Part shown: positions 46,542-64,000 of the stretch, in pieces
Layout of the letters: every line of letters starts with the position of its first letter
Position numbering within the stretch: the first letter of the stretch is position 1
From: Candidatus Latescibacterota bacterium
Lineage (GTDB): Bacteria > Latescibacterota > UBA2968
DNA length: 64,000 bases
Assembly: GCA_965208125.1 (NCBI GenBank)
Contig: OZ242320.1
Coordinates: forward strand, 800,001-864,000
Reading direction: 5' to 3'
Program-made: the position numbers and the translations under genes
The notes under the pieces: generated by a model
The model's database searches: none
Told to the model about the DNA's origin: nothing
The model's input: only the letters and a program-made list of their open reading frames with translations

Positions 46542-49400
46542 ATGCGCACATTGTGTATCATTTTTCTCGTACTGTGGAGTACTTGCTCAGTCATAGCTCA
46601 GGATATGGGTAGCTTGACTGGAAAAGTGGAAGATGAGACGGGAGAAGCATTATTCGCGGCCAATATCACAGTCAAAGGACCGGCCATTGAGGGCGTAAGG
46701 GGCGCAATCACCAACGACCAGGGCAACTATCGCATCGACCGCTTGCCGCCGGGGACTTACGAAATCACCATCAGTTATATCGGCTATGAAACCATCGCCG
46801 CAACCGGCGTAGAAATCCGCGCTGGCGAAAGTATAACGCGAGACTTTACGCTGACCGCTGTCGTCCTCATCGGTCAGCAAGTCGTCGTATCGGCATCGCG
46901 CAAACAGGAAAAAGCCCTGGACGCACCCGCTTCAATAGCAACGATCGAAGCATCTGAAATCAGAGATCGGGGCGTCTTGTCACCGACTGAGCATATCAAG
47001 ACCCTGCCCGGTGTTGACTTTTCCAAAACGGGCATCTCACAAAGCAACGTGGTGGTTCGCGGATTCAACAATGTATTTTCTGGCGCACTGCTCACACTCG
47101 TTGACAATCGCATTGCCCGCGTCCCTTCCCTGCGTTTCAATGCCTTTGATATGATCCCCGTTACCGGTGACGACATTGAGCGTATTGAAGTGGTATTAGG
47201 ACCCGGATCTGCGCTTTACGGTCCCAACACCTCCAGTGGCGTCATGCACATTATCACCCGCTCGCCATTTGGATCGGAAGGCAATACAATTTCCATATCT
47301 GGCGGGCAGCGCAGTGTGAGAAAATTATCACTGCGCCACGCCAGCAGCCTCAACGACAAGATCGGGATCAAAATTTCGGTTGGGCACAGTTCAGCCCATG
47401 ACTGGGAGTACATCGATCCTCTGGAAGTGGAATCACGCGGTTTTAATCCACGCGATTACAACGCAAAAAAGACATTGGGAGAACTGAGACTCGATTTTCG
47501 ACCAACAGATGACCTGACAATCATAGGATCAACGGGTTATACAAAAACAAGCGGTATTGAATTGACGGGTTTGGGCGCGGGTCAGGCAAAAGACTGGACC
47601 TATAATTTTTATCAAGGCCGCCTGCTCTATCGCGAGTGGTTTGCACAGGTCTTCTTCAACGCCAGTGATGCAGGTCAAACGAGAATGATCGCAGCCGACG
47701 ACCCAATTGTAGATAATTCATATTTGATGGTTCTGCAATTGCAACACAATGCCAATTTGGGACAGAAACAACACTTTGCTTATGGTGCTGATGTACTGCG
47801 AACCCGACCCAAGACAGGGGGCACAATAAATGGCATGCATGAAGACATTGATAACATCGATGAATACGGGGTCTATTTGCAAAGTGAAACCAGCCTGAGT
47901 GATCAAATCGAGCTGGTATTGGCCGGGCGCATAGACAAGCACAGCCATGTTGAAGATCCATTTTTCTCACCCCGCGCAGCGCTGGTCATTAAACCCAGGC
48001 CACTCAACACCCTGCGATTGACGTATAACCGCGCATTTAGCACGCCTTCGACCACCAACTTATTTTTGGACCGGATCGGCCTCCCCGATCCCTTTGGGTT
48101 CGGGGCATTGCAACCGGCATTGGGATTTAGTCCAGCAATTGACGTTCGCGCACAGGGCACCGCCGGTACCGGATTCACATTTCGCAGAGACGACAATGGC
48201 CTACCCATGTATCGGACCTCCTTTGCGCCCATAGCGGGCTTGTCAAAAGATCACTACTTCTCTCTGCACGATCCGCAAGGTACCAATTTGATGTGGGGCG
48301 CTGCCAGATCAATAATAATGAGTATCCTTTTGGCGGAACTGGAACCTCTCGCAACAGGGCTTTTCGTAGATCGGCTTGGGCTACCACAAGATCAAGCGGC
48401 TGCGGTAGCCGCACAACTGGTTGCAGACTTCCCCGGGATTATCCCAGAACAACTGCCGGGCTTGCAAAATACGGCCGGCACACTGAATACGGCAACGGCG
48501 AGTTTTGATCCCGAGCCCAGCCTCGCCAATGCAGTGGCAGACATAAACAAAATCGAATCGACCATCTCAGAAACCTTTGAAGTGGGATACAAAGGCGTCA
48601 TCAATAACAAACTCATTCTCGCAGCCGATGCCTACCTGAGCAGAAAAAGAAATTTCACCAGCCCGTTGCGGATTGTAACACCCAGTGTGTTTCTCGCAGC
48701 CGGTCCCTTGAGCGAAGCTCTGGAAAACGGAATTACCGAGAACTTGAGAGACCCCGCCAATGCAAGTCTCGCAATTGCCATCGGCCTTTTAGATCAACTC
48801 AACCTGCCGGATTTGGGCCTGGTTGGCAATGGCAATGGCACGGGCATAGATGAATTGACGCAGTTATTTGTATCCAACGCCGCGGGAATTCCCTTTGGTA
48901 CCATGTCTGCCGAACAGGCATCAGACCCCACTGCAGTCATGGTCGCATATCGCAATTTCGGTCGCATAACGCTCTACGGTGCCGACCTGTCGTTTGCGTA
49001 TTATCCAAACGAAATGTGGACTTTTACCGGCAATTACTCCTATGTCAGCGATGATTGGTTCCCCAATTTAGACAACATCGGCGACATTGCCCTCAATGCC
49101 CCCCGGCACAAATTTAACATCGGAGTCGATTGCCAACTGCCCAATATGCCACTCACCATTCGCGGAAAATTGAGCTATCGCGGTAGTTTTCCAATGCAAT
49201 CGGGTGTATATGTAGGCGATGTAGATGCTTACACTGTTTTGGACCTGAATGCCGCATATCAGTTGCCACTCTCAAATGACCGCTTCAAGATCACCTGGAA
49301 TGTGGAAGCCAGCAACGTGTTAAACCAGGAATATCGATCATTTATCGGTGCGCCATTTATTGGACGCCTGGTCTTAACGGGCCTGAATATTCGATTCTAA
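46542..49400 (+). CDS. TonB-dependent receptor, paralog 1
   Basis: Signal peptide, carboxypeptidase-regulatory-like domain, VVVSASRK, VRGFN, IERIEVVLGPGSALYG, C-terminal GLNIRF. Confidence 0.95.
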   Translation: MRTLCIIFLVLWSTCSVIAQDMGSLTGKVEDETGEALFAANITVKGPAIEGVRGAITNDQGNYRIDRLPPGTYEITISYIGYETIAATGVEIRAGESITRDFTLTAVVLIGQQVVVSASRKQEKALDAPASIATIEASEIRDRGVLSPTEHIKTLPGVDFSKTGISQSNVVVRGFNNVFSGALLTLVDNRIARVPSLRFNAFDMIPVTGDDIERIEVVLGPGSALYGPNTSSGVMHIITRSPFGSEGNTISISGGQRSVRKLSLRHASSLNDKIGIKISVGHSSAHDWEYIDPLEVESRGFNPRDYNAKKTLGELRLDFRPTDDLTIIGSTGYTKTSGIELTGLGAGQAKDWTYNFYQGRLLYREWFAQVFFNASDAGQTRMIAADDPIVDNSYLMVLQLQHNANLGQKQHFAYGADVLRTRPKTGGTINGMHEDIDNIDEYGVYLQSETSLSDQIELVLAGRIDKHSHVEDPFFSPRAALVIKPRPLNTLRLTYNRAFSTPSTTNLFLDRIGLPDPFGFGALQPALGFSPAIDVRAQGTAGTGFTFRRDDNGLPMYRTSFAPIAGLSKDHYFSLHDPQGTNLMWGAARSIIMSILLAELEPLATGLFVDRLGLPQDQAAAVAAQLVADFPGIIPEQLPGLQNTAGTLNTATASFDPEPSLANAVADINKIESTISETFEVGYKGVINNKLILAADAYLSRKRNFTSPLRIVTPSVFLAAGPLSEALENGITENLRDPANASLAIAIGLLDQLNLPDLGLVGNGNGTGIDELTQLFVSNAAGIPFGTMSAEQASDPTAVMVAYRNFGRITLYGADLSFAYYPNEMWTFTGNYSYVSDDWFPNLDNIGDIALNAPRHKFNIGVDCQLPNMPLTIRGKLSYRGSFPMQSGVYVGDVDAYTVLDLNAAYQLPLSNDRFKITWNVEASNVLNQEYRSFIGAPFIGRLVLTGLNIRF

Positions 49401-49455
49401 AGCTGCCCCTCTCCCATCTTAAAAAACTCCAGATCATTGCGATAAGGAGGATTTG

Positions 49456-52317
49456 ATGCGCTTATTATATATCCTTGCTTTCGTACTGTGGAATGCTTAC
49501 TCGGTCATAGCTCAGGATTTCGGCGGCTTGACTGGAAAAGTGAAAACAGAGGACGGAGTAATTTTATTCGGTGCCAATATCATAGTCAAAGGACCGGCCA
49601 TTGAAGGCACCCGGGGTGCAATCACCAATGACCAGGGAAACTATCGCATCGACCGCTTGCCGCCGGGCATTTACGAAATCACCATCAGTCATATCGGCTA
49701 TGAAACGGTGGTTGTATCGAATGTAGAAATCCGCGCTGGCGCAAGTATGACGCGAGATTTCAAATTGACCGCCGTAGTCCTCATTGGTCAACAGGTCGTG
49801 GTATCGGCATCGCGCAAACAGGAGAAAGCCCTGGACGCGCCTGCCTCAATTGCAACAGTCGAAGCGTCTGAAATCAGAAATCGAGAAGTCTTGACAATGA
49901 GTGAATATGTCAAGACTCTGCCCGGCGTTGACTATGCTCAAACAGGCATATCGCAAGGCAGCATGGTCGTTCGCGGATTCAACAAGGTATTTTCTGGCGC
50001 ATTGCTCACACTCGTTGACAACCGCATTGCCCGCATCCCTTCCCTGCGCCTCAATGCCTATGATTTGATCCCCCTTACCAGTGACGACATTGAGCGCATC
50101 GAAATCGTTCTGGGACCCGGATCCGCACTTTACGGTCCCAACAGTGCCAATGGCGTGATGCACATTATCACCCGCTCGCCATTTGGATCGGAAGGCAATA
50201 CAATTTCCATATCTGGCGGGCAGCGCAGTGTGAGAAAATTATCGCTGCGACACGCCAGCAGCCTCAACGACAAGATCGGGATCAAAATTTCGGGTGGATA
50301 TGTTGCAACCCATGACTGGGAATATGTCGATCCCCTGGAAGTGGAATCGCGCGGTTTTAATCCACGCGATTATAGCACAGAAAGGACAAGTGGAGAGTTC
50401 AGGCTCGACTTTCGACCAACAGATGACCTGACACTGATAGGATCGGCAGGCTATTCAAAAATGAGCGGCCTTCAACAGACGGATTTGGGTGCGGGCCAGG
50501 CAAAAGACTGGACCTATAATTTTTATCAAGGCCGTCTGCTCTATCGCGGGTGGTTTGCACAAATCTTCTACAACACCAGTAATGCGGGCGACACGGAACT
50601 GATCACAGCCGGCGACCCAATTGTAGATAATTCACATTTGATGGTCTTGCAATTGCAACACAATGCCAGTTTGGGCAAAAAACAACACTTCGCTTATGGT
50701 GCCGATGTACTGCTCACCCGACCCAAAACACAGGGCACAGTACACGGCATGCATGAAGACAATGACGACATCGATGAATACGGGATCTACCTGCAAAGCG
50801 AAACCAACCTGAGCGATCAAATCGATCTGATAATGGCCGGGCGTATCGACAAACACAGCCATATCGAAGATCTGTTTTTCTCACCCCGCGCAGCACTGAT
50901 CATTAAACCCAGCCCGTTCAACACCCTGCGATTGACATATAACCGAGCATTTAGCACGCCCTCAACCCCAGACTTATTTGTAGATCGAATCGGCGTCCCC
51001 GACGTCTTTATGCTGGGGACAAGTTTCAGCCCGATATTGGAATTTAGTCCAGCAATTGACCTTCGCGCACAGGGCACTGCCGGTACCGGATTCACATTTC
51101 GCAGAGACGACAATGGGCTACCCATGTTTCGGACGCCCTTCGCGCCTATAGCGGACCTGTCAAAAGATCACTACTTCTCTCTGCACGATCCCCAGGCCAC
51201 CAATTTGATGTGGCGTGCTGCCAGAGAGGCAATACTGAACGGCTTTCTATCTGAACTGGAACCTCTTGCAACAGAGCTTATCGCAGGCGGGCTTGGGCTA
51301 CCACCAGATCAAGCCGTTGCGCTGGTCGAAAAACTCGTCGAGATCTTTCCCGGAACTATCCCAGAGCAACTGCCGGGCTTGCAAAATACGGCTGCGATAC
51401 TGAATGCAGAAACGCAGGGTTTCGATCCCATACCCGACCTCGCCAATGCAGTGACAGACATAGAAAAACTCGGACCAACCATCACAGAAACCTTTGAATT
51501 GGGATACAAAGGCGTCATCAAAAACAAACTGATCCTGGCAGCCGATGTTTATCAAACCAGAATCAAAAATTTTGTCAGCCCGTTGCGGATTGAAACGCCC
51601 AACGTATTTCTCGCACCCGGTCCCTTAAGCGAAGCCCTGACAGACGCGCTTACCGAGAACCTGAAAGATCCTGCCAATGCAAGCCTCGCAATTGCCCTTA
51701 TTTTTTTAGATCAGCTCAACGAGCCAGAGTTGGGGTTGGTTGGCAATGGCAATGGAACAGGCGTGGATGAATTGACGCAGTTATTCGTAGCCAACGCCGC
51801 GCTGATCCCCTTTGGTACGATAGTACCCGAACAGGCAGCAGACCCCAATGCGGTGATCGTCGCACCTCGCAATTTTGGCAACATAACGCTCTACGGTGCT
51901 GACCTATCGCTTGCGTATTATCCAAACGAAATATGGGCTTTTACCGGCAATTATTCCTACGTCAGCAAGGATATGTTTCGCAATTTAGACAACATCGGCG
52001 ACATAGCCCTCAATGCTCCCAGACACAAATTTAATATCGGTATCGATTGCCAATTGCCCAATATACCGCTCACGATCCGGGGAAAATTTCGCTACCGCGA
52101 TGGCTTTCCAATGCAATCGGGTATATATGTCGGCAATGTAGATGCTCATACTGTTTTGGATTTGAATTTGACCTATCAGTTGCCACTTTCAAATGATCGC
52201 TTCAGCACCTCCTTAAATTTGAATGCCAGCAATTTGCTAAACCAGGAATACCGATCATTTGTCGGTTCGCCCTGGATCGGACGCCTGATTACAAGCAGCT
52301 TGCATGTTCGGTTCTAA
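49456..52317 (+). CDS. TonB-dependent receptor, paralog 2
   Basis: Colinear with paralog 1 over the full length; AAGGAGG RBS; C-terminal SLHVRF. Confidence 0.95.
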   Translation: MRLLYILAFVLWNAYSVIAQDFGGLTGKVKTEDGVILFGANIIVKGPAIEGTRGAITNDQGNYRIDRLPPGIYEITISHIGYETVVVSNVEIRAGASMTRDFKLTAVVLIGQQVVVSASRKQEKALDAPASIATVEASEIRNREVLTMSEYVKTLPGVDYAQTGISQGSMVVRGFNKVFSGALLTLVDNRIARIPSLRLNAYDLIPLTSDDIERIEIVLGPGSALYGPNSANGVMHIITRSPFGSEGNTISISGGQRSVRKLSLRHASSLNDKIGIKISGGYVATHDWEYVDPLEVESRGFNPRDYSTERTSGEFRLDFRPTDDLTLIGSAGYSKMSGLQQTDLGAGQAKDWTYNFYQGRLLYRGWFAQIFYNTSNAGDTELITAGDPIVDNSHLMVLQLQHNASLGKKQHFAYGADVLLTRPKTQGTVHGMHEDNDDIDEYGIYLQSETNLSDQIDLIMAGRIDKHSHIEDLFFSPRAALIIKPSPFNTLRLTYNRAFSTPSTPDLFVDRIGVPDVFMLGTSFSPILEFSPAIDLRAQGTAGTGFTFRRDDNGLPMFRTPFAPIADLSKDHYFSLHDPQATNLMWRAAREAILNGFLSELEPLATELIAGGLGLPPDQAVALVEKLVEIFPGTIPEQLPGLQNTAAILNAETQGFDPIPDLANAVTDIEKLGPTITETFELGYKGVIKNKLILAADVYQTRIKNFVSPLRIETPNVFLAPGPLSEALTDALTENLKDPANASLAIALIFLDQLNEPELGLVGNGNGTGVDELTQLFVANAALIPFGTIVPEQAADPNAVIVAPRNFGNITLYGADLSLAYYPNEIWAFTGNYSYVSKDMFRNLDNIGDIALNAPRHKFNIGIDCQLPNIPLTIRGKFRYRDGFPMQSGIYVGNVDAHTVLDLNLTYQLPLSNDRFSTSLNLNASNLLNQEYRSFVGSPWIGRLITSSLHVRF

Positions 52318-52388: not shown

Positions 52389-53579
52389 TTACCCAGGCGG
52401 CTGATAGGGCCGGGATTCTGGATCGCGTTCGGGAAGCCCCAAACTATCCCAAAAAATTGTGTGATCAAATGGCGTGAGGCGAAAATCCGGAATGGGAACT
52501 GGCGCACCGCCCAACTCGGCGGATTTATTTGCCAGAATCCCCGGCAGACAGTATTCAATGGCGCGATACACATCAATCGGCGATGGCTTGCCAGCGAGAA
52601 TAGACTGTGTAAAATGTCGGGCGAGTTTTAAGTCTGCACCGCCGTGACCTGCAGAAGTATCATCGCCATGTGCGCCAAGGCCAACAGGCAAAACCTCCCA
52701 ACCACTGCGATGATCCGCCCCTCGAGAAAAGCGACGAGCGTGTTTTTCATAGCTAAACCATTCGGCACCGCCCTCAACGCCAAAAATGCGATAGCGATGT
52801 TCAGAAGGCCGGGCCGTATTGAGCGTAACCATAATTTTAATAAGCGCGCCCTTTGCTGTTTCGAACACCGCGATCTGACCGTCGGAACGCAGAGGCGCGT
52901 CAGCACTTCGGAACGGCGCGCTGCGACAAGAAACAGAAACACAGCGATCGTCAATCACTTCGAGCAATGGCCCCAGGTCATGCGTCAGATATTGAATAGG
53001 AGGTTGATCGGCACGCCAGATCGGCATTGTATCGGTATAACCGGCTGCCCGCGCTCGCGTCGGCGTATGCCGCGAACTATCCGGGCGCAAAAGCGTGGCC
53101 GGCAAATGGTGAATATATTCGCCTTCGGCAATGGAAATAGGGCCAAATCGATCTTCGACAACCCACTTGCGGAAATAGCGAAAAAAATCCCAATAACAGG
53201 TATTTTCTCCCAGCATATAGGTTTTGCCCGTATATTCAACAGTCTGGCGCAAATTCATACACTCTTCTTGCGTATAAGCCCCCGGCACTTCCGAAAGCAC
53301 ATGACACCCCGCGCGCATCGCCTCACACCCGTGTTTCACCTGTAATTTCCCATTCGTAGCAACCACAATAGCATCGGGGTTGAGATCGAGCAAATCGTCA
53401 AACTCGGGCAAAATCGGAGCCGTTGCACCAACCGATGTCAGGTGTTGCTCGGCGCGTTCTCTCAAACGCGGAAAGCGGTCACAAGCACCAATAACCTCAG
53501 CCTCTTCCAGAGCGAGAAAATTTCTGAAATGCGTAAAACCGCGACCGAGGCCCAGAATACCAACTTTGAGCTTATCCAT
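52389..53579 (-). CDS. Gfo/Idh/MocA family oxidoreductase (start moved to ATG 53579)
   Basis: KVGILGLGRG, HVLSEVP, YMLGEN, EGEYIH, YLTHDLGP, GHGGAD. Confidence 0.88.
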   Translation of the reverse strand: MDKLKVGILGLGRGFTHFRNFLALEEAEVIGACDRFPRLRERAEQHLTSVGATAPILPEFDDLLDLNPDAIVVATNGKLQVKHGCEAMRAGCHVLSEVPGAYTQEECMNLRQTVEYTGKTYMLGENTCYWDFFRYFRKWVVEDRFGPISIAEGEYIHHLPATLLRPDSSRHTPTRARAAGYTDTMPIWRADQPPIQYLTHDLGPLLEVIDDRCVSVSCRSAPFRSADAPLRSDGQIAVFETAKGALIKIMVTLNTARPSEHRYRIFGVEGGAEWFSYEKHARRFSRGADHRSGWEVLPVGLGAHGDDTSAGHGGADLKLARHFTQSILAGKPSPIDVYRAIEYCLPGILANKSAELGGAPVPIPDFRLTPFDHTIFWDSLGLPERDPESRPYQPPG

Positions 53580-53659
53580 AGTTAAACCCCTCAATATGCG
53601 AATCAACGAATCAACGAACCCTGCCCATCCTCCCCAAACCAGTATTTATCTCCATTCGT

Positions 53660-55360
53660 CTATTCGTCTATTCGTCCAGCAGACACAATGCGGATATCAA
53701 TCTCAAATGCACTGACGGGATAATTTATACCCCAAGTTTCGAGAACGCCGGGATGCACTTCGCCAATAAGCCCGTAAACGCGCTCGCCTATGCGGATCTC
53801 ACCACTGCGCCCGGGCAAAAATGTGGGATGATCAATCGGCGCAATAGTATATTCAAAATTAAAATAATAGGATAACACCTCGAGAAAGCTCTGAATACCG
53901 GACAAATTGGCTTCGTCACTCGCTTCGAGCGCGCAAAGATGAATATCTGTGCGCGTACCGTAATTTTCCCCCAGATCGAGCACCCCCACTTCCCCCACCT
54001 CAAAAATCCGATGTGGGTACAGCGCGCGACGGCTTGTGGCTTCGGTCTTCAGCAAACCGGGCAACAACGACCCTCGAATCGCGCTGTAATTTTCGGACAT
54101 GGGATTTGAAATCGAAATAATCTTTGCATCCGGATTATTCATATCCACAGTCTGTTCTTTTTGAGAACAGAGAATTGGCAAAAAGACCTCTTGAAATCCG
54201 CTCCCAACCATGAGATTGCGAAATCGGTCTGCGAGATCCTCTTCTGGCGCTGCTTTGCCAACCGTAAAATCCCGGGGCATCTCGGGTTCAAAAGCCTCGT
54301 ACCCCACGCCGATCACAACATCTTCCACAACATCTACGGAATGTAAAATATCGTCGCGATACGGTGCTGGACGCACGCTGATACGCTCGTCCTGTACATC
54401 GATATCCCGATAACCCATAGCGCTGAGCGCAGTCTGAATCTGCCCCATCGAAATATGTGCCCCAACCACCTTGTAAATCTCATCTAAATCCACCTGCACA
54501 GGCTCGGTCAAATCATAGGGACACGTCACATCTCGTCCTCTCGGCGTCTGATATGGATAGCGCACAGTTACGGGATAAATGCGGCCACCCCGGTCAGCCA
54601 TATTGACCGCCATAATCGCCATAGACAATAAAATAGCATCGAGTTCAGGCCCCGTCGCTTCGCAAAATAAAAACGCATCCCCCACTTCAACGCGCCCCAG
54701 ACTCTGGCTATTAATCACAGGAGGCATAGAAAGAACCTCGCCGCGCGAATCTCGGATCAGGGGAAACTTATCCTTCCCCTCGAGGAGATGTGCATACGTT
54801 CTGCCCGTGGGATGATCGGACAAAATCTGTCGCAAAGACATCTCATCCTCAAACTCCAGAGGAACAAAAGCAGTTTTATCGGGATCAACCGCATCGTATC
54901 GCACCGGATACACAATATCTGATGCATCGTAAATCCCAATCGCAACAACACTGCGACCGCGACCATATCCATCGGAGAGTTTTTCCTGCGCCTCGATAAG
55001 CGCGTCAAGTGCTGCCTCGTCAATCGCAATACCCTCACACGCAAAAGCGGCAATATAAGGACGGATATTTTGCAACCCGGGATCGACAATAACCTCCCGT
55101 TCTTCCGATACACCAGACGCATCAAAAAAAGAATAGTCCGGCTGAACATTCTCCCGATGGCTTTTGAGCAACCGCGCAAGCCCCTCTGCCGACCAGAGAT
55201 CGGGGCGGTTGGTATCTTTGAGCTGAATGCGAAGCGTATCGCCCTCTTCCGCATCGATCTCGGCCTTGGCAGTTTCAAGCGCAGCACTCAAACTCTCCGA
55301 AGAATAAACCTGCCCTGCGAGACGTTCAAAATCGGGTTTATTAACTGTAATCGTTGGCAT
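53660..55360 (-). CDS. pheT: Phenylalanyl-tRNA synthetase beta subunit, archaeal/eukaryotic short type
   Basis: 566 aa; DTNRPDLWS, RPYIAA, LSMPPVINS, YRDDILH.VDVVED, IFEVGE; no OB tRNA-binding or FDX-ACB domain. Confidence 0.93.
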   Translation of the reverse strand: MPTITVNKPDFERLAGQVYSSESLSAALETAKAEIDAEEGDTLRIQLKDTNRPDLWSAEGLARLLKSHRENVQPDYSFFDASGVSEEREVIVDPGLQNIRPYIAAFACEGIAIDEAALDALIEAQEKLSDGYGRGRSVVAIGIYDASDIVYPVRYDAVDPDKTAFVPLEFEDEMSLRQILSDHPTGRTYAHLLEGKDKFPLIRDSRGEVLSMPPVINSQSLGRVEVGDAFLFCEATGPELDAILLSMAIMAVNMADRGGRIYPVTVRYPYQTPRGRDVTCPYDLTEPVQVDLDEIYKVVGAHISMGQIQTALSAMGYRDIDVQDERISVRPAPYRDDILHSVDVVEDVVIGVGYEAFEPEMPRDFTVGKAAPEEDLADRFRNLMVGSGFQEVFLPILCSQKEQTVDMNNPDAKIISISNPMSENYSAIRGSLLPGLLKTEATSRRALYPHRIFEVGEVGVLDLGENYGTRTDIHLCALEASDEANLSGIQSFLEVLSYYFNFEYTIAPIDHPTFLPGRSGEIRIGERVYGLIGEVHPGVLETWGINYPVSAFEIDIRIVSAGRIDE

Positions 55361-55368
55361 TTTTACTC

Positions 55369-56910
55369 CTACCGCGTATTCCTGACCAGATCCAAATCCG
55401 TACTGAACAAATCGCGTATATCGTTAATACCCAGCGCGACCATCGCCATTCGATCAACCCCCAGACCCCAGGCAATCACTGGAACATCCACACCCAGCGG
55501 TCGTGTAAGCTCAGGACGAAAAAGACCCGCGCCCCCAAGCTCGATCCAGCCCAGAACGGGATGCTTCGCCTGAAGTTCTACCGAAGGCTCGGTAAAAGGA
55601 AAATAATCGGGCACATAGCGCACATCTTCGGCCTGCGCGATCTCAAGCGCGAACAACTTGAGCAAACCGAGCAAACTGCGAAAATTTATCTCCTCGCCCA
55701 AAACAATACCCTCAGCCTGAAAAAAATCCGCTGCATGCGTGGCATCCACATCATCCGGGCGAAAGCAACGCGCAAGCGCGAAATACTTACCCGGCACATT
55801 TAGCTCTGAAGCCAGCGTACGCGCCGAAAGCGCGGTACCCTGACTCCGCAAAATAAGGCGGCGCGACTGTTCGGAATTGAACTCATAACGCCACCCGCGC
55901 GAACCTGTCTCGCCCCCATGATGATGCGCCTCAGCCACCCTGGAAAAATAGGGTTCTTCAGCCTCTCGGGATCGCGTCGGCTCCGTCAAATAATAAACAT
56001 CGTGAATATTGCGCGCCGCGTGGAACTGCGGCATAAAAAGCGCATCCATATTCCAGAACTCGGTCTCCACCAGCGAACCTCTCATCTCTTCAAAACCGAG
56101 CGCCATCAATCGACGCCGCACATTATCGAGATACGCCCGATAGGGATGGTGCTTTCCAATAAGCACACGCGGCGGCTTAATCGACAGATCATATCGGCGA
56201 AAAGACGCGCCCTGCCATGTGCCCTTCTGAATCATTTCCGGCGTAAGACGAGAAATCTCATCACCCGTAAGATTGGCTTTGACAACCTCCACAAGCACGC
56301 GCCGTCCTTCTTCCGTAAGACAATAAACCCGCTCTATACGCTCGTCCAAACGAACAGGTCCCCTGCTCCCACCGCGTTTGCGGGCATTGGCTTCAATATA
56401 TTGGACAATATCACCGGGAAAATCATCAATCTCAATTCCAGTATCGGAAAATTTGTGAAAAAATTCTGGCATCAGTCGATCAACAAAAAAAGAAGCCCGA
56501 TCTGTATCGACAATAACAATAGCCCCCTTATCCAGATCGATAACCCCATCCTTTTTCAAACCGCCAAACGCACTGCCCCAGGCACCTCTGTCAAACCGCT
56601 CGTCGGCTTGCAAGTCCTGGATCCCGACGCGCTCTGCGCTCGCCCGGGCCAAAAGTGCGGTCTCTGGCGTCGCGCCCTTTGAGGCAAAATCCCGTCCCAC
56701 TTCCGTAAGCGAAACAGTTACTTGCGTATTTTCCCCGGTAACTTCCAGCAAATGCTTGGAAATCAGCCACTCAACCGCGCGCCGAACCTGTCCTTCGCCG
56801 AGATCCGCACCACTTTGAAGCTGTGCATCGGACTGCTCGGCACTGGCATTATTCTCATATACACGCAAAATGCGAATTTCGAGGGCATGTAAAGAAGCGA
56901 GATCAATCAA
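55369..56910 (-). CDS. pheS: Phenylalanyl-tRNA synthetase alpha subunit, archaeal/eukaryotic long type
   Basis: 513 aa; FWNMDALFMPQFHAAR, CFRPD.VDATH, YFPFTEPSVE, GAGLFRPE, AWGLGVDR; TTG start with AAGGAG RBS. Confidence 0.93.
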   Translation of the reverse strand: MIDLASLHALEIRILRVYENNASAEQSDAQLQSGADLGEGQVRRAVEWLISKHLLEVTGENTQVTVSLTEVGRDFASKGATPETALLARASAERVGIQDLQADERFDRGAWGSAFGGLKKDGVIDLDKGAIVIVDTDRASFFVDRLMPEFFHKFSDTGIEIDDFPGDIVQYIEANARKRGGSRGPVRLDERIERVYCLTEEGRRVLVEVVKANLTGDEISRLTPEMIQKGTWQGASFRRYDLSIKPPRVLIGKHHPYRAYLDNVRRRLMALGFEEMRGSLVETEFWNMDALFMPQFHAARNIHDVYYLTEPTRSREAEEPYFSRVAEAHHHGGETGSRGWRYEFNSEQSRRLILRSQGTALSARTLASELNVPGKYFALARCFRPDDVDATHAADFFQAEGIVLGEEINFRSLLGLLKLFALEIAQAEDVRYVPDYFPFTEPSVELQAKHPVLGWIELGGAGLFRPELTRPLGVDVPVIAWGLGVDRMAMVALGINDIRDLFSTDLDLVRNTR

Positions 56911-56951
56911 AAGAAACTCCTTATGCAGCGATCAACACTCTACTGACTGTC

Positions 56952-57025
56952 GGGACGGCACAGGGGCCGTCCCCTACGATGCTATTGTTAATCCAATTTG
57001 TAGGGGCGACCCCCTGTGGTCGCCC
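56952..57025. repeat. Two inverted GTAG-type REPs (REPIN-like doublet) in the pheS leader
   Basis: gggacggcacaggggccgtcccctac (56952-56977) and gtaggggcgacccc...ggtcgccc (57000-57025). Confidence 0.7.
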
Positions 57026-57034
57026 ATTAACAAC

Positions 57035-57300
57035 AAAAAAGCCCCTTCGTCATCATAGGGACGAAAGAGCTTTTCGCGGTACCACCCTATTTGCGCTAAA
57101 AAGCACCACTCAATAGATGGCCATCACCATCCTGTCCATTGTCGGCGGACCCACCGGCTCGGCTTAATAGGAAACTATCTTTCCATTCGGCTTTGCAGCT
57201 CGGGAGGGAACTTCGCCTGTGCATCCTGCAGATGTGCTTTCAGCCCAGGACACATCCTCTCTGTGCAGTTGGGAACAGGTTACTTTTCTCCGTCATTGCT
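57035..57300 (-). ncRNA. Transcriptional T-box riboswitch with Phe (UUC) specifier
   Basis: Stem I with GA motif, AGUA, AGAGAG, GGGCUGA loop and GAAG-UUC specifier (57210-57208); T-box AGGGUGGUACCGCG (57088-57075); terminator GCUCUUUCGUC...GACGAAGGGGC-U6. Confidence 0.92.
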
Positions 57301-57310
57301 TTGGAGAGAA

Positions 57311-57339
57311 AACATAGAAATTTGCACTACAAGTGTCAA
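57311..57339 (-). promoter_or_regulatory. sigma70 promoter of T-box-pheST
   Basis: TTGACA-17 bp-TATGTT just upstream of stem I. Confidence 0.75.
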
Positions 57340-57355
57340 GCCGAAAGTCGCAAAC

Positions 57356-60300
57356 CTATCCGCCAACCGATTTGCCAAAGACACTCACAAGCAGAAGAAA
57401 ATCGGGAAAGTCAACAGCACCGTTCCCATTGATATCGTATTGGGCCTGGGACGATCCAAAGGCACTCACAAACAGGAGAAAATCAGTAAATTCGACTACG
57501 CCATTGCCGTCAAAATCCGATTTGGCCTCCACAGAAAGCGGCTGGACAACGCCAGAAATCGTCAGCGTATGCTTTGCGCGATCCGGATCATTACTCGAAA
57601 TGGTGATAAGCCCCGAAAATGTGCCTTCCATGGGTTTGGGAAACGCAATCATAACCGTCGCCGAACTATCCGGAGGCAACGTAAACATCACAGGATCAAA
57701 TGTCAAACCCGACACATCGCTCTCAATACCCGTAATCTCCAACGGCGCAGTACCCGTATTCGTAATCGTAAAAGTCTGCTGGGCCGTCTTTTCGGCATCA
57801 ATAGTACCGAAATCAATTGCGGATTCTCCCACAACCAGCACCGGCGCAGGTGCCGCCTGCACAATCACAGACACAGATAATGTCTGGGTTGCACGATCCG
57901 GATCATTACTCGAAATGGTGATAAGCCCCGAAAACGTACCCTCCACAGAACTCGGAAACGTCACTGTCACTGTGCGCGAACTATCCGGAGATAGTGTAAA
58001 CATCACAGGATCAAACGTCAGACCCGACACATCGCTCTCGATACCCGTAATCTCAAGGGGAGCCGTACCCGTATTCGTCACCGTAATCGTCTGCTGAACC
58101 GGTTGAGCAAACGCAACTGTGCCAAAGTCAATTGCTGTTTGCTGAACAGTGATAGCCGGAACAGGTCGCGGTTGAACAATCACAGAAATTGACAGCGTAT
58201 GCTTTGCGCGATCCGGATCATTACTCGAAATAGTGATATTGCCTGAAAACGTGCCCTCCACAGAACTCGGAAACGTCACTGTCACCGTCTGTGAACCATT
58301 AGGTTCCAGCGTGAACATCGTATTATCAAACGTCAAACCCGACACATCACTCTCAATACCCGTAATCTCAAGGGAGGCCGTGCCCATATTCGTAATTGTA
58401 ATCGTCTGCTGAACCGGTTGAGCAAACGCAACTGTACCAAAATCAATTGACGTTTCCTGAACACTAATCGCTGGCACAGGTGCCGCCTGTACGATCACAG
58501 ACACAGATAATGTCTGCTTTGCGCGATCCGGATCATTACTCGAAATGGTGATAAGCCCCGAAAACGTACCCTCCACAGAACTCGGAAACGTCACTGTCAC
58601 TGTGCGCGAACTATCCGGAGATAGTGTAAACATCGCAGGATCAAAGGTTAGACCCGACACATCGCTCTCAATACCTGTAATCTCCAAATCCGCGGTACCT
58701 GTATTTGTAATCGTAATCGTCTGCTGAACCTGTTGCTCAAACGCAACAGTGCCGAAATTAACTTCCTCTTGTGGCACAGAGATCGCCGGAACAGGGGGCG
58801 GTTGAACGATCACAGAAATTTTCAGCCTATGCTTCGCTTGATCCGGATCATTACTCGAAATAGTGATATTACCTGAAAACGTGCCCTCCACAGAACTCGG
58901 AAATGTCACCGTCACCATCTGTGAACCATTAGGTGCCAGCGTGAACGTTGTAGTATCAAACGTCAGCCCCGACACATCGCTCTCTATACCTGTTATCTCT
59001 AAATCCGCGGTACCCGTATTTGTAATCGTAATCGTCTGCTGAACCGATTGGGCAAATGCAACAGTACCAAAGTCAATTTTCGTTTCCTGAACACTGATCG
59101 CTGGCACAGGTCGTGGCTGAACGATCACAGAAATTTTCAGCCTATGCTTCGCTTGATCCGGATCATTGCTCGAAATAGTGATAAACCCCGAAAACGTGCC
59201 CTCCACAGAACTCGGAAATGTAATCGTAACTGTCTGTGAACCATTAGGTGCCAGCGTGAATATCGTCGTATCAAACGTCAGCCCCGACACATCGCTCTCT
59301 ATACCCGTAATCTCAAGAGGCGCTGTTCCAGTATTCGTGATCGTAATCGTCTCTTGAACCGGTTGGGCAAACGCAACAGTACCAAAGTCAATCGCTGTTT
59401 GTTGTACCGAGATCGCTGGCACAGGTGCCGCCTGCACAATCACAGAAATCGATAGCGTATGCCTTGCGCGATCCGGATCATTGCTCAAAATATTGATACT
59501 ACCCGAAAACGTACCCTCTGTCGAATTCGGAAACGTCACTGTAACCGTGCGTGATCCATTGGGTTCCAGCGTGAACATCGTAGTATCAAATGTCAATCCC
59601 GACACATCGCTCTCAATACCCGTTATCTCCAACGAAGCTGTGCCCGTATTTGTAATCGTAATCGTCTCTTGAATCGGTTGACCTACCTCAACAGTACCGA
59701 AATCAACTGCCGTTTGTTGCACACTGATCGCAGGCACAGGAGGCGGCTGCACAATCACAGACACGGATAATGTCTGTGTTGCACGTTCCAGATCGTTACT
59801 CGAAATAGTGATATTCCCTGAAAACGTGCCTTCCGTCGAACTCGGAAACGTCACCGTCACCGTGCGCGAACCGCCAGGTTCCAGTGTGAACGTAGAAGGT
59901 TCAAACGTCAATCCCGACACATCGCTCTCAATACCCGTTATCTCAAGAGGCGCTGTTCCCGTATTTTGGACTGTGAAAGTCGCTTGAACCGATTGTGCAA
60001 ACGCAACAGTACCGAAATCAATCACTGTTTCCTGAATAGAGATCGCTGGCACAGGTCGCGGTTGGACAATACCAGAAACGGATAAGGTCTGTGTTCCACG
60101 TTCCAGATCGTTACTCAAAATAGTGATATTTCCCGAAAACGTACCCTCTGTCGAACTCGGAAACGTCACCGTCACCGTCCGCGAACTATTGGGTTCCAAT
60201 GTAAACATCGTAGTATCAAACGTCAGACCAGACACATCGCTCTCTATACCTGTAATCTCCAACGTTGCAGTACCCGTATTCGTAATCGTAATCGTATCCT

Positions 60301-62416
60301 GAACCGGTTGGGCAAACGCAACAGTACCAAAATCAATCGCCGTTTGCTGAACACTGATCGCTGGCACAGGTCGCGGTTGAACGATCACGAACACAGATAA
60401 TATCTGGGTTCCACTCTTCGGATCATTACTCGAAATAGTGATATTACCTGAAAACGTGCCCTCCGTCGAACTCGGAAATGTCACCGTCACCATCTGTGAA
60501 CCATTAGGTGCCAGTGTAAACATCGTAGCATCAAACGTCAGCCCCGACACATCACTCTCTATACCTGTAATCTCAAGAGGCGCTGTTCCAGTATTCCTGA
60601 TCGTAATCGTATCCTGAACCGGTTGTGCAAACTCAACAGTACCAAAATCAATTGCAGTCTCCCGCACAGAGATCGCAGGCACAGGTTTCGGTTGAACGGT
60701 CACAGAAACAGATAATGTCTGTGTTCCGCGTTCCAGATCATTACTCGAAATAGTGATATTGCCTGAAAACGTGCCCTCCGTCGAACTCGGAAACGTCACT
60801 GTCACCGTCTGTGAACCATTAGGTGCCAGCGTGAATATCGTATTATCAAACGTCAGGCCCGACACATCACTCTCTATACCCGTAATCTCAAGAGGCGCTG
60901 TTCCAGTATTCCTGATCGTAATCGTCTGTTGAACTGGTTGTGCAAATGCAACTGTACCAAAATCAATCGCCGTTTGCCGCACAGAGATCGCTGGTGCAGG
61001 CGGCGGTTGGACGATTACATAAACGGATACAGGGTACTCCGCATGATCTGGATCATTACTCAAAATATTAATAAGTCCTGAAAATGTACCTTCTGTCGAA
61101 CTCGGAAATGTCACTGTCACCGTGCGCGATCCATTGGGTTCCAATGTGAACATCGTAGTATCAAATGTCAAACCCGACACATCGCTCTCTATACCTGTAA
61201 TCTCAAGAGGACCTGTACCCATGTTCGTAATCGTAATCGTTTGTTCACCCGTTTGACCTGCCTCAATAGTACCAAAATTAACTCCTTCTTGTGGCACAGA
61301 GATCGCCGGTACAGGGGGCGGTTGAACGGTCACGGACACAGATAATGTCTGTGTTCCGCGTTCCAGATCATTACTCGAAATAGTGATATTACCTGAAAAC
61401 GTGCCCTCCGTCGAACTCGGAAACGTCACCGTCACCATCTGTGAACCGCCAGGTTCCAGCGTGAACATCGTAGTATCAAATGTCAAACCCGACACATCGC
61501 TCTCAATACCTGTTATCTCCAAATCCGCGGTACCTGTATTTGTAATCGTAATCGTCCGCTGAACCTGTTGTGCAAACTCAACAGTGCCGAAATCAACTGC
61601 TGTTTGCGGTACCGAGATCGCTGGCGCAGGGGGCGGTTGGACTATGACAGACACGGATAATGTGCTTGTTGCACTATTTGGGTCATTACTCGAAATCGTG
61701 ATATTACCCGAAAACGTGCCCTCTGTTGAACTCGGAAACGTCACTGTCACTGTCTGTGAACCGTTGGGAGCCAGTGTGAACGTCGTAGTATCAAACGTCA
61801 AACCCGATACATCACTCTCAATACCTGTAATCTCCAAATCCGCAGTACCCGTATTCGTAATCGTAATCGTCTCCTGACCTGTTTGACCCGTGTCAATAGT
61901 ACCGAAATCAACTCTCTCCTGCACTGAAATCGCTGGTGCAGGTGATGGTATTTGCGCCAACAGTTCATCAACCTTGGCTTCCGCAGTAGAAATGACGTTT
62001 GAAATAAAGCCTCCGGACCATTCTACATTCCCATCAGTACCAACCACAACGAGGCGATCATACGTGGTCGTAGCATCACTCCTACTCGCACTTAGAAGCA
62101 TGGGAAAAGTGATGCCTCCATTCGCGCGAAAACCCTCAACTTGAGCACGACTACCATTCCAGAGATCGAGACCGAGCATGGCAACATTGGGGTTATCGTT
62201 ATACTTTTGCCATAATGTTTCGAGCGACCTACCTGCCGCTCTACAGGTCGGTCAGCCATACCCGATGACTGCAAGTATGAGCACCTGGCCGCGATAGTCA
62301 GAAGCACTATATGTACTGCCGTCGAGGCCCGTTAAAGAAAAATTAACCGTTTGTGCAAAAGCAGACCCAGCGAGCAAGAACAGCATCATTGGGATAGATA
62401 AAAGATATTTGCGCAT
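57356..62416 (-). CDS. Putative secreted selenoprotein (1686 aa): signal peptide, TlpA/AhpC-TSA thioredoxin-fold domain with U55-P-T-C58, 14 Ig-like (choice-of-anchor D/ASH-like) repeats, dockerin-like EF-hand pair
   Basis: GAGGA RBS and ATG 62416; MRKYLLSIPMMLFLLAGSAFA-QTVNFSLTGLDGSTYSASDYRGQVLILAVIGYG-TGA-PTCRAAGRSLETLWQKY runs in frame into the 1607-aa ORF; C-terminal DFDGNGVVEFTDFLLF..DINGNGAVDFPDFLL. Confidence 0.85.
57540..61945 (-). repeat. 14 tandem 315-bp (105-aa) coding repeats
   Basis: LEITGIESDVSGLTF recurs 14 times at a 315-bp period (approx. 57708, 58023, ... 61803). Confidence 0.95.
62222..62254 (-). promoter_or_regulatory. Bacterial SECIS-like hairpin directly 3' of the in-frame UGA
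   Basis: UGA CCGACCUGUA GAGCGGC-AGGUAG-GUCGCUC: 7-bp stem 10 nt after UGA; G19-C20-A21-G22-G23-U24 (U of UGA = 1) match the E. coli fdhF SECIS positions as I recall them. Confidence 0.8.
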
Positions 62417-62566
62417 GGTATTTATCCTCATATATTGGTTAAGTTAAGGATCGGGAAAAGGATTTCCCTCCTACGGGTCCCTCAATAATGTATTACCTGT
62501 ACTAAAAGTATCAACGCTTCAATTTAACAGAAGTTTCTCCACAGGTCAATTCACAAGGAGCGAGCG

Positions 62567-63406
62567 ATGGGCATCCTCACCGAACAAAAAAAAGCGTTCT
62601 TTGACACCTTTGGGTTTCTCGCATTTCCGGGATTATTGTCAGATTGCATCGACGAAATTATCGAAGCATTTGAAACAATATGGACACAACGGGGAGGTGG
62701 ACACAACGGGCAACCGCACGACGGCAAACGCCGATCGTGTATCGTGCCATTTATCGACCAGCACGAACGCCTGTGCGCCCTCTTAGATGATCCGCGGATA
62801 AAAGAAATCCTGATCGGATTACTGGGTGAAAATTTCAATTACATGGGATCAGACGGAAATTATTATGCCGGAGACACGCAATGGCATTCGGATGGCTGGG
62901 GCAAGGAAATTCGATTTGTAAAAATTGCCCTGTACCTGGATCACTTAACGCGCGACACGGGTTGTTTGCGCGTCATTCCGGGAAGTCACCATCTCAAAGA
63001 TCAATATGCAAATAATGTCGAAAACACCGTCCGAAATTCTCAGGAGCAATGGGATATTCACGGATCAGATGTCCCTGCACTACCACTGGAAACCAATCCG
63101 GGCGACGTCGTCCTATTCAACCACAACTTAAAACACGCAGCCTTTGGCGGCAGTCCACGTCGGCGCATGTTCACCATCAACTGCAGCGAACGCTTCCCCG
63201 AAGACGAAGAACACATTGAACTGTTAAAAACACAGATTGCCGCACGCGCGCGGTTCTGGAACGATCGCGCTTACGGAAAAATCATGGTCGCAACCGCTGG
63301 ACCCGAACGACAAAAACATCTATCGCAAATCATGGCGCACGACGATCACCTCGCCGAACTCTCCGCACGCGCAAGAGAAGAAATGCCCGAGCCATCGCGT
63401 GGATAA
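62567..63406 (+). CDS. PhyH family dioxygenase
   Basis: FFDTFGFL, W-H-S-D, LRVIPGSH, PGDVVLFNHNLKHA, RRMF. Confidence 0.9.
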   Translation: MGILTEQKKAFFDTFGFLAFPGLLSDCIDEIIEAFETIWTQRGGGHNGQPHDGKRRSCIVPFIDQHERLCALLDDPRIKEILIGLLGENFNYMGSDGNYYAGDTQWHSDGWGKEIRFVKIALYLDHLTRDTGCLRVIPGSHHLKDQYANNVENTVRNSQEQWDIHGSDVPALPLETNPGDVVLFNHNLKHAAFGGSPRRRMFTINCSERFPEDEEHIELLKTQIAARARFWNDRAYGKIMVATAGPERQKHLSQIMAHDDHLAELSARAREEMPEPSRG

Positions 63407-63434
63407 CTCGCGATAGCCAGCCTATCAAAACCAG

Positions 63435-63461
63435 AAAGCCCTGTAACGCAGGGCTTTTTTT
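63435..63461 (+). terminator. Intrinsic terminator
   Basis: AAAGCCCTG-taacg-CAGGGCTTTTTTT. Confidence 0.85.
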
Positions 63462-63542
63462 ATTTAGGAATTCGCTCTTCGGAGTCACATATATATAGCG
63501 GGCGGAAAACAACCAATCAACAATCGTCTATCCGGAGTTACA

Positions 63543-64000
63543 ATGAGCAAACGCGATGCAGAGCAAATTCAAAAAGTATTGGCTGGCGACCAGGCTGCTT
63601 ACGAACCGCTGGTCAATGCGTATCAAGGGCGCATCTTTGCCTTTGTAGCTGGTCGAATCCGCAACTTTTCCGCAACTGAAGACATCGTCCAAAATGCGTT
63701 TGTGGAGGCATACATGCACCTCAAGTCTCTAAAATCGCCCGAAAAATTCTCAGGTTGGCTGCGGGGAATAGCACTCAATTTGTCAAACAAATGGCTTCAA
63801 CAAAAGCGTCCAGTCGTCTCAATCGACGACACATCGCGGGATATAACGCCTGAAGCATCGGAAGTTCCATTGCCGGACTTACCCGACGAAGCACTGGAAA
63901 AAACCGAAACAAAAGAAGTCGTTATAGCCGCCGTTGATGCATTGCCAGACATTTATCGAGAATCAGTACTGCTCCACTACATGGAAGGCATGACCTATCC
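63543..64000 (+). CDS. ECF sigma-70 factor, 3' end outside window; absent from ORF track
   Basis: Manual translation MSKRDAEQIQKVLAGDQAAYEPLVNAYQ...EDIVQNAFVEAY..L.SLKSPEKFSGWLRGIALN...VLLHYMEGMTY; GGAG RBS. Confidence 0.9.
   Translation, partial: MSKRDAEQIQKVLAGDQAAYEPLVNAYQGRIFAFVAGRIRNFSATEDIVQNAFVEAYMHLKSLKSPEKFSGWLRGIALNLSNKWLQQKRPVVSIDDTSRDITPEASEVPLPDLPDEALEKTETKEVVIAAVDALPDIYRESVLLHYMEGMTY

Follow-up and report, generated by a model that had tools for sequence, protein, structure and literature searches.

A probable exported selenoprotein with a thioredoxin-fold head, an immunoglobulin-like stalk and a dockerin tail in Latescibacterota

Results

Gene Structure at the Locus

The stretch of DNA analyzed here (the window) comprises 64,000 nucleotides (nt) of contig OZ242320.1 (positions 800,001 to 864,000 of assembly GCA_965208125.1) from a Candidatus Latescibacterota bacterium, and its minus strand carries, from 62416 down to 57356, what is very probably one gene for an exported selenoprotein, with selenocysteine (Sec, U) at UGA codon 55, a thioredoxin-fold head, 14 immunoglobulin (Ig)-like repeats and a dockerin. 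Under table 11 the region is read as a minus-strand open reading frame (ORF) of 1607 amino acids (aa) at 57356..62179 and a short ORF at 62252..62431 in the same frame. Reading the in-frame TGA at 62254-62252 as U joins the two ORFs and adds 79 codons upstream of 62179, giving a frame of 1686 aa that opens with the ATG at 62416 and closes with the stop codon (57356..57358); U55 is its sole codon that departs from table 11. The same extension, by 79 codons through one TGA, had been proposed in a preliminary description of the locus made by a model from the sequence alone, and our re-reading of the frame agrees with it. An in-frame ATG also lies at 62431; because many homologs have Ile there whereas the N-terminal sequence MRK/MRQYLLSIP is conserved, the ATG at 62416 (62416-62414) is the likely start. 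The sequence GAGGA (62425..62429), 8 nt 5′ of this ATG, would serve as the ribosome-binding site, and residues 1-21 (MRKYLLSIPMMLFLLAGSAFA; 62354..62416 together with the start codon) look like a Sec-pathway signal peptide by their shape, with likely cleavage between AFA and Q. The start, ribosome-binding site and signal peptide of the preliminary description could thus be retained, with an N-terminus conserved in homologs as added support. Downstream of the signal peptide lie the redox head (61937..62353), with a TlpA/ResA-like thioredoxin fold and the motif G-U55-P-T-C58 in the Sec-spanning peptide GQVLILAVIGYG-U-PTCR, followed by a tandem array of 14 Ig-like repeats (57530..61936), each 104-105 aa long and linked to the next by a short Pro-rich stretch, and a C-terminal dockerin (57359..57529) with two calcium-loop/helix segments, DFDGNGVVEFTDFLLFVSAFG and DINGNGAVDFPDFLLLVSVFG. 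The sequence encoding the head also contains a hairpin (62222..62241) resembling a selenocysteine insertion sequence (SECIS).

Selenocysteine Decoding at Codon 55

The preliminary description had called for a search of the genome for selA, selB, selC and selD, and all four were found in the source genome, a single contig of 5.75 Mb that is 96.4% complete. SelA (493.6 bits), the SelB wing domain (78.1 bits), SelD (364.8 bits, and itself carrying one in-frame TGA) and tRNA-Sec (70.1 bits; ARAGORN anticodon tca) all scored above their family cut-offs. The organism appears to use Sec in several redoxins, because 8 of the 26 matches to Pfam AhpC-TSA (PF00578) in its genome contain one in-frame TGA (at 2419514, 5058321, 3783051, 1006863, 4826876, 862084, 1038770 and 640709), and it looks rich in Sec redoxins on this count. 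A selenium cluster at C1:1005361-1007210 of the same genome holds tRNA-Sec, selD and an adjoining TlpA-like gene with the motif W-A-S-W-U-G-C.

The TGA was then followed through relatives with a six-frame search using the head over 61 related genomes, and a head match was found in 59 of them. Among the 95 listed matches at E <= 1e-10, counted by eye, 87 contained exactly one TGA, two a TGA and a TAG, one a TAA, and five no stop. All 20 loci that were fetched had the U in the column G-[YHW]-x-U-x-x-C. The 36 distinct Sec homolog segments, which include more distant loci, likewise had their TGA in the UxxC column without exception. The preliminary description had reckoned with a nonsense pseudogene in case the TGA was not conserved in relatives; the column proved to be kept across genus, family, order and class, with head identity down to 26-30%. 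The preliminary description had also suggested a search for pairs of Cys and TGA homologs. CxxC forms with the same Ig and dockerin build were found at four loci (L053, L057, L059 and L061), three of which adjoin a Sec paralog, and among database proteins of 435-445 aa (P0063, P0068, P0072, P0129 and P0130) that have a CxxC head with GYNC(A/P)xC, two Ig repeats and a dockerin; the codon in the Cys forms at the TGA position is TGT or TGC. A further database protein of 454 aa (P0094; head, two Ig repeats, dockerin) has neither Sec nor Cys, with G-Y-I-N-D-T-S at this place, and looks redox-dead.

These comparisons bear directly on whether the TGA is simply a stop, which would leave either a nonsense pseudogene or a 54-aa peptide followed by a separate Ig protein from the ATG at 62179. 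One TGA column is kept from genus to class among residues that diverge to 26-30% identity, on either side of it the frame, signal peptide and fold are preserved, and the Cys forms prove that both halves are one protein. The stop is what table 11 gives, and database homologs of a 436-aa paralog (described below) do start past the TGA, at 321-322 aa; against this, the full Sec machinery is present, and a product from 62179 would have neither a signal peptide nor a complete thioredoxin fold, half of which would be missing. We regard translation stopping here for good as scarcely credible. The conserved TGA column, the Cys forms and the coding on both sides make up a pattern for which neither a sequencing error nor a nonsense pseudogene can account, and the recurrence of the TGA, its column and a downstream hairpin in dozens of homologs is more than chance. 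Judged by this comparative evidence, the TGA at 62254-62252 is very probably a Sec codon and not damage, and the claim of a hidden selenoprotein gene, with which the preliminary description opened, is supported by the Sec machinery, the conserved column and the Cys forms together. An alternative code in which TGA stands for Trp or Gly was considered and rejected, SelA, SelB, SprA, pheS and pheT being open under table 11; the ending of the 436-aa paralog at a TGA also counters it.

Sequences akin to the locus were found in other sequencing runs as well. A contig of 1011 nt (X1) was identical to the window across 61527-62537 and may come from the genome's own sample, in which case it is not independent, and a 13.7-kb contig of a sponge-metagenome run (X7) was ~88% alike over 61694-62439. 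A 190-nt contig from an RNA library (X12) covered 62194-62377 with 17 differences; it belongs to a relative and may reflect DNA carry-over, and we make no claim of expression from it. The runs with small shares of the window were mostly labelled sponge metagenomes, and relatives occur in such metagenomes.

The SECIS-Like Hairpin

A 7-bp hairpin (GAGCGGC / GUCGCUC with the loop AGGUAG; 62241-62222) begins 11 nt past the UGA and, with the U of UGA taken as +1, places GCAGGU at +19 to +24 and GGU at +22 to +24. The preliminary description had drawn attention to this hairpin and to GCAGGU at this distance; the hairpin is present and sits where the conserved SECIS-like hairpin of the family sits. 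In the 36 distinct Sec homologs a hairpin was found in the same register, with an apical loop that is nearly always GGUC (+22 to +25). Pair counts over these homologs showed 70.5% of cells paired, compared with 37-52% when the partner was slid, and none of 500 shuffles reached 70.5%; the four upper pairs were formed in 29, 32, 31 and 35 of the 36 sequences. Codon choice within the hairpin was likewise biased, the Gly codon being GGT in 31 of 33 (24% of Gly codons genome-wide) and the Pro codon CCG in 30 of 33 (28% genome-wide), and the preceding codon (codon 7) ended in G in 33 of 34. In addition, loops containing GGU or GU lie at comparable distances in other Sec genes of the source genome.

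Several results weigh against taking this hairpin as the SECIS, and the first concern the structure itself. For the lower half of the stem, pairing was seen in just 12 to 28 of the 36 sequences, and its register shifts between clades: for example, CUAxGGACG-GGUC-CGUCCGUAG stands in place of GAGCGGCG-GGUC-CGUCACUC, a swap that goes with the residue change RAAGPSLE to YGTGPSVE. The window copy is an outlier of the family, having AGRS where the others have AGP(R/S), that is, Pro replaced by Arg, and a 6-nt AGGUAG loop rather than GGUC. The folding programs favored other solutions. At minimum free energy the window RNA forms a different hairpin, which overlaps this one and takes in the UGA (-17.8 kcal/mol, z = -2.1; 6 of 200 shuffles fold as well), and RNAalifold chose this UGA-overlapping hairpin for 19 close homologs, with little covariation, and returned no consensus structure for the 36-sequence alignment. 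An Rfam scan of 61900-62500 at a permissive threshold found no SECIS, its best match being an unrelated family at E = 0.28. Finally, the sequences compared are related, and the hairpin overlaps conserved G-P residues, so that part of its conservation lies at the protein level. The GGUC-loop hairpin is nevertheless preferred over the alternative because of the pair counts, the slid controls and the synonymous-site bias, and we consider the GGU/GGUC-loop hairpin the likely SECIS of the family.

The Redox Head

Residues 24-119 matched Pfam AhpC-TSA (PF00578; 6.8e-9, 36.2 bits, cut-off 26) and Pfam Redoxin (2.3e-8, 34.4 bits, cut-off 26.6), and the best solved relatives by sequence were the TlpA-like proteins 2ls5 and 3kcm, with U55 aligned to the first Cys of their CxxC. 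An AlphaFold2 (AF2) model of the head, built with 37 homologous heads, had a predicted local distance difference test score (pLDDT) of 89.8 and a predicted template modeling score (pTM) of 0.86. The top Foldseek match of this model was 2ls5, a putative disulfide isomerase of Bacteroides, with a query TM-score (TMq) of 0.86 and E = 1.2e-11; numerous ResA entries came next (TMq 0.77-0.83), with peroxiredoxins and glutathione peroxidases ranking lower. U34, C37 and P84 (head numbering) are invariant in the alignment of the 37 heads, the redox motif stands at the N-terminal end of helix 1, and the conserved proline loop of the thioredoxin fold is present as well. The preliminary description had placed Sec at the first Cys of a CxxC in a TlpA/AhpC-TSA fold, and both the Pfam scores and the match to 2ls5 are in accord with it. 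Telling against a plain ResA assignment, the NCBIfam ResA model NF002854 gave the head 30 bits against a cut-off of 170; because of this score the head is ResA-like in fold yet not a ResA equivalog. When 1.84 billion cluster representatives were searched with a profile of the head, 26,004 proteins matched at E <= 0.001, of which 51 reached E <= 1e-30. Among the best 150 representatives, AhpC-TSA was found in 149, Por_Secre_tail in 84, CHU_C in eight, an Ig domain in five and a dockerin in three. The motif ‘LGLDxWNG’ is specific to the clade of the window head.

The same matches raise the question of whether the head might be a Sec thiol peroxidase that scavenges peroxide on the cell envelope and not a disulfide reductase or isomerase. 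The peroxiredoxin signature PxxxTxxC has a Thr three residues before the peroxidatic Cys. This Thr is missing at -3 of the window protein, where the residues before U55 are L-A-V-I-G-Y-G (hence I-G-Y-G-U), and membership in the peroxiredoxins proper (AhpC/BCP) was rejected on that ground. AhpC-TSA is the best Pfam family, and Foldseek also lists PrxQ/BCP and glutathione peroxidases at TMq 0.65 to 0.78; these are outranked by the CxxC disulfide oxidoreductases (2ls5 and ResA, TMq 0.77-0.86), and the U-x-x-C spacing is that of thioredoxin-type enzymes. The accessible text of reviews does class UxxC selenoproteins of PF00578 as ‘Prx-like’, and host-derived oxidants would be plausible in the sponges whose metagenomes contain relatives. 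Taken together, a peroxidase seems rather unlikely, and the head is most likely a thiol-disulfide oxidoreductase, as judged from its motif and fold.

The Ig Stalk and the Dockerin Tail

Pfam recognized 14 HYDIN/VesB/DUF1573 Ig stretches in the window protein and a repeat-placing script 14 units, each of 104-105 aa, so that the stalk of 14 repeats given in the preliminary description was reproduced by two methods. The Ig unit matched the NCBIfam model choice_anch_D (‘choice-of-anchor D’) at 1e-36, and Tandem Repeats Finder (TRF) reported a period of 315 nt with 13.7 copies, 79% matches and no indels. Nucleotide identity among repeats 2-14 was 68-89%. An assembly artefact from collapsed or inflated identical repeats was considered and found unlikely, no pair of repeats being more than 89% identical at the nucleotide level. 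The Ig repeat (61300-61930) also matched the NCBIfam model ‘OS_HP2 family (seleno)protein’ with 61.7 bits, below the cut-off of 100; the first report of this family is from Olavius symbionts. OS_HP2 is described as a hypothetical selenoprotein only (PMC1976440).

For the tail, the preliminary description had ventured no more than a dockerin-like character, which the searches bore out. Dockerin_1 matched at 57389-57520 (1.9e-5, 25.2 bits, cut-off 22.9) with EF-hand matches alongside, and the NCBIfam model dockerin_GC scored 28.2, slightly under its cut-off of 29; the tail also contains an internal duplication of 81 nt. In an AF2 model built with 28 homologous tails (pLDDT 89.9), the top 17 Foldseek matches were all solved dockerins (2y3n_B: TMq 0.71, target TM-score (TMt) 0.81, root-mean-square deviation 1.9 A), and calmodulin-type EF-hand proteins reached a TM-score of only 0.22-0.31. 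As modeled, the tail is a true dockerin fold with two tandem segments of calcium loop plus helix, ~22 residues each.

Export and Location of the Protein

The preliminary description had proposed a search for cohesin-like partners, and the source genome gave five cohesin matches, compared with 56 dockerin matches; SprA, of the type IX translocon, is also present, with 16 Por_Secre_tail matches. A type IX sorting domain closes at least two of the cohesin-bearing ORFs, and the tail of the window protein might bind the cohesin of such a type IX-sorted carrier. A complex prediction for one candidate pair, the cohesin at residues 1365-1505 of a 1606-aa type IX-sorted protein with the dockerin tail and two calcium ions, returned a score of 0.12 (mark 0.34), which counts neither for nor against binding. 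Near 4.775-4.793 Mb, a terminal dockerin comes after a sorting-domain-like module in four ORFs. Within the window, two tandem genes for TonB-dependent receptors of 952 and 954 aa with CarboxypepD_reg N-terminal domains lie on the plus strand at 46542-52317, confirming that the organism has an outer membrane.

The closest relatives of the head are, by their domain content, mostly type IX secretion cargo, that is, surface or secreted proteins, because 84 of the best 150 representatives carry Por_Secre_tail. In a class-level relative (L058, at G057:C2), a protein of 308 aa without a dockerin joins a Sec head (G-H-S-U-P-A-C) directly to a type IX-like tail; the tail matched FlgD_ig at 2.4e-8 and Por_Secre_tail at 5.3e-4, below the cut-off. 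The window protein would act outside the cytoplasm, probably at the cell surface.

Three points weigh against a surface location. The Pfam results for the window protein included no type IX sorting domain (Por_Secre_tail or CHU_C), GspD or any other secretin was not found in the 96%-complete source genome, and we know of no reductant for an extracellular TlpA-like enzyme. With neither a sorting domain nor GspD/secretin, the search brought up no route over the outer membrane for the dockerin-tailed proteins. It could therefore be asked whether the selenoprotein stays in the periplasm, its signal peptide leading it over the inner membrane and no further, its tail binding calcium or a periplasmic partner and its head working like TlpA/ResA/CcmG, reduced by a membrane protein of the CcdA/DsbD type. 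Apart from the missing sorting domain and secretin, this would suit the closest solved folds, which are extracytoplasmic TlpA/ResA-type reductases, and homologs with 1-2 Ig repeats would fit into the periplasm. Fourteen Ig repeats in a row, by contrast, would be far longer than the periplasm is wide, going by the typical size of an Ig domain. A periplasmic home would also sit poorly with the type IX cargo among the closest Cys relatives (84 of 150) and with a bona fide dockerin fold in a genome whose cohesin proteins carry type IX sorting domains and so are exported, and the locus evolves much faster than its flanks (see below), as loci for surface proteins often do. A periplasmic protein is thus possible, though on balance we think it unlikely, and a surface location is preferred. 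A bolder scheme can be drawn in which the Sec redoxin and ~55 other dockerin-tailed proteins, none with a sorting domain of its own, bind type IX-sorted cohesin carriers and are exported folded, as their passengers, with stalk length setting the reach of the selenol. We hold this scheme to be quite doubtful; if true, it would make the window protein the first extracellular scaffold-docked bacterial selenoenzyme and would reveal a piggy-back route of export.

A Family with a Conserved Locus and a Variable Stalk

The build of signal peptide, Sec head, Ig repeats and dockerin is common to all complete homologs, and signal peptide, Sec head, 1 to 14 Ig repeats and dockerin define, as far as sequence goes, a family of Latescibacterota. 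Its members come as forms of 327-334 aa (one Ig), 423-436 aa (two), 644 aa (four), ~740 aa (five), 848 aa (six) and 1686 aa (the window protein), the number of Ig repeats being judged by length and confirmed with Pfam for the window protein and two Cys forms only. The open frames of the best matches in the genus ran from 335 to 1695 aa, the next longest being 1417 aa. The ‘giant’ protein of the preliminary description is accordingly the longest member, with 14 Ig repeats; it is not a singleton, and most of its family has one to six.

A search for related loci with specific peptide patterns found four close loci and three weak ones. Synteny at the locus is conserved, with a PhyH dioxygenase gene, the Sec gene (one or two in tandem), pheS, pheT and a gene for a GFO-type oxidoreductase. 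When loci L039-L042 were compared with window positions 52389-63998, the flank proteins (PhyH, pheS, pheT, GFO) were 91-96% identical and the heads only 63-67%, and at the syntenic locus both the copy number (one or two in tandem) and the number of Ig repeats (1 to 14) vary. Since the heads are at 63-67% and the flanks at 91-96%, and since the repeat number differs, the locus, in both head and repeat number, changes much faster than the genes that flank it in these comparisons.

The source genome has two paralogs of the window gene. One is a protein of 436 aa with two Ig repeats. The other, of 1118 aa (C1:4826807-4830163, or L066:808-4164), has the same signal peptide and a Sec head 66% identical, followed by a dockerin-like segment, leucine-rich repeats (LRR) and an HExxH motif, of which Pfam confirmed the LRR alone, the rest being assigned by reading the sequence. 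Because it is found on two differing paralogs, the Sec head behaves, to judge from these genes, as a movable N-terminal module. A cohesin protein of 268 aa with a FlgD_ig/type IX-like tail is encoded ~2 kb downstream of the 1118-aa LRR paralog.

A protein database search with the 436-aa paralog gave 127 matches, the close ones being proteins of 321-322 aa that cover 74% of the query and begin past the TGA; those database fragments that bear a name are called ‘choice-of-anchor D domain-containing protein’. The public entries start after the TGA, which means that the Sec head is not annotated.

Features around the gene are as follows. Two overlapping sigma-70-like promoter matches lie upstream on the minus strand (62549-62521 and 62514-62485; 62485..62549), identified as matches to the consensus; the signal is weak, with nine promoter-like sites found in the region where shuffles lead one to expect 8.3. 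On the other side, a terminator-like hairpin of 16 pairs followed by a T run was found by pattern matching at 57036..57075 on the minus strand, ~280 nt past the stop codon and before pheS. As pattern matches, the promoter-like and terminator-like sites on either side of the gene would fit one transcription unit. Divergent from the Sec gene, the plus strand encodes a PhyH-family dioxygenase and an extracytoplasmic function (ECF)-type sigma-70 factor (62567-63998), an arrangement conserved in relatives.

Discussion

Proposed Mechanism

The analysis shows how the gene is built, the context for decoding Sec, the two modeled folds, conservation throughout the family and the rapid change of the locus. 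From these we infer the enzymatic reaction of the head, its electron source, its surface location and its binding to cohesin, the individual steps following from established thioredoxin-fold CxxC and Sec chemistry. The preliminary description had likewise placed the head away from the cell on a long rod, docked through the dockerin-like repeats and acting on extracellular disulfides or peroxides, which may be so but goes beyond what the sequence shows. Translation would begin at 62416, and SelB with Sec-tRNA(Sec) would be recruited by the small hairpin that begins 11 nt past UGA-55, so that Sec is inserted at this codon and translation goes on to 57356. Were selenium lacking, translation would terminate at codon 55 and yield a precursor of 54 aa, in line with the preliminary description. 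Cleavage of the signal peptide would leave a mature protein made of the head, a rod of 14 Ig repeats and a calcium-type dockerin, and this protein would be anchored through its dockerin to one of the few cohesin proteins with type IX sorting domains. The attacking residue of the head would be the Sec of U-P-T-C: its selenolate would attack a substrate disulfide, or a peroxide or sulfenic (oxidized sulfur or oxygen) species, and Cys58 would resolve the intermediate by way of a selenenylsulfide. Sec would bring a higher reactivity and a resistance to irreversible over-oxidation, which may suit an enzyme placed far from the repair systems of the cytoplasm.

Relation to Known Systems

Most of the known bacterial selenoproteins are redox enzymes of modest size that are cytoplasmic or are exported to the periplasm by the Tat or Sec pathway. 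Among them, a ‘Prx-like thiol:disulfide oxidoreductase’ (PF00578; UxxC or UxxU) figures among the selenoprotein families predicted in bacteria by Zhang et al. (2006; PMC1794560) and in a 2026 review (PMC13188914), and the PF00578 match and U-P-T-C motif of the window head are those by which the accessible text of the review defines this class. The head has in common with it the PF00578/Redoxin-type fold, a Sec that comes first in UxxC, homologs with Cys and an occurrence in selenoprotein-rich bacteria. The comparison is one of descriptions: the class is defined by a Pfam accession and a motif, and the accessible portions of these sources name no Ig stalk, dockerin or signal peptide. Heads of the window type differ from the class so described: they form the N-terminal module in multidomain, secreted proteins that are 327-1686 aa long. 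With the TlpA/ResA/CcmG proteins (1su9 and 3c71, ResA; 2ls5, Bacteroides thetaiotaomicron; 3kcm, Geobacter) it shares the fold, at the TM-scores given above, an active site at the N-terminus of helix 1, the loop proline of T-F-P (P84) and export. It differs from them in having Sec for Cys, no membrane anchor and a fusion to Ig repeats and a dockerin, and in an identity of only 16-24%. The TlpA-like WASW-U-GC protein of the same genome fits the ‘UGC-containing TlpA disulfide reductase’ class as the 2026 review describes it in its accessible part; with U-G-C and not U-x-x-C, and without stalk or dockerin, this paralog is separate from the window protein.

By sequence, the head stands closest to type IX-secreted CxxC redoxins from the Fibrobacterota-Chlorobiota-Bacteroidota group (P0142, P0148 and P0127 among them), which combine Cys with a sorting domain where the window protein combines Sec with an Ig stalk and a dockerin. 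A characterized analogue of these redoxins is HBP35 of Porphyromonas gingivalis, described in two papers as a cell-surface protein that the Por (type IX) system secretes and that has a sorting domain, a thioredoxin-like motif and a reported thioredoxin activity (PMC2907840, PMC3120885); the likeness is one of description. As regards the tail, the AF2 model shares with the dockerins of cellulosomes (2y3n_B, 4u3s_B and 3kcp_A) two duplicated calcium-binding loop-helix segments and, at TMt 0.81, the fold. Unlike the cellulosomal enzymes, the window protein has as its catalytic module a selenoenzyme and not a carbohydrate-active one, and its host has an outer membrane; the candidate cohesin partners have type IX sorting domains rather than the S-layer-homology (SLH) anchors of cellulosomes. 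Genes for extracellular enzymes affiliated with cellulosomes have been reported from Latescibacteria (Farag et al., 2017, cited in PMC7081726).

In open-access text, supplements excepted, we found no paper that links selenoproteins with dockerins, choice-of-anchor D, type IX secretion or Latescibacteria. The preliminary description had known of no description of the architecture. The stalk-plus-dockerin form of a Sec redoxin indeed appears to be undescribed in that literature, whereas the class of the head is already on record. The protein is thus a known Sec redox module in a new modular, exported architecture that runs through the lineage and has been hidden from annotation.

Significance

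Gene callers stop at the TGA, and the redox function of dozens of genes consequently stays invisible to studies based on annotation, a gap that touches sponge- and sediment-associated bacteria. The finding also poses the question by which route proteins with a dockerin tail would get out of the periplasm in this lineage. It adds to the bacterial selenoproteins a modular, exported Sec family that is conserved across a class of Latescibacterota and in which the head would be the working end of an Ig stalk of variable length with a dockerin. Since Sec, Cys and redox-residue-free forms occur in one architecture, sometimes in neighboring genes, the family offers a setting in which to ask why Sec replaces Cys.

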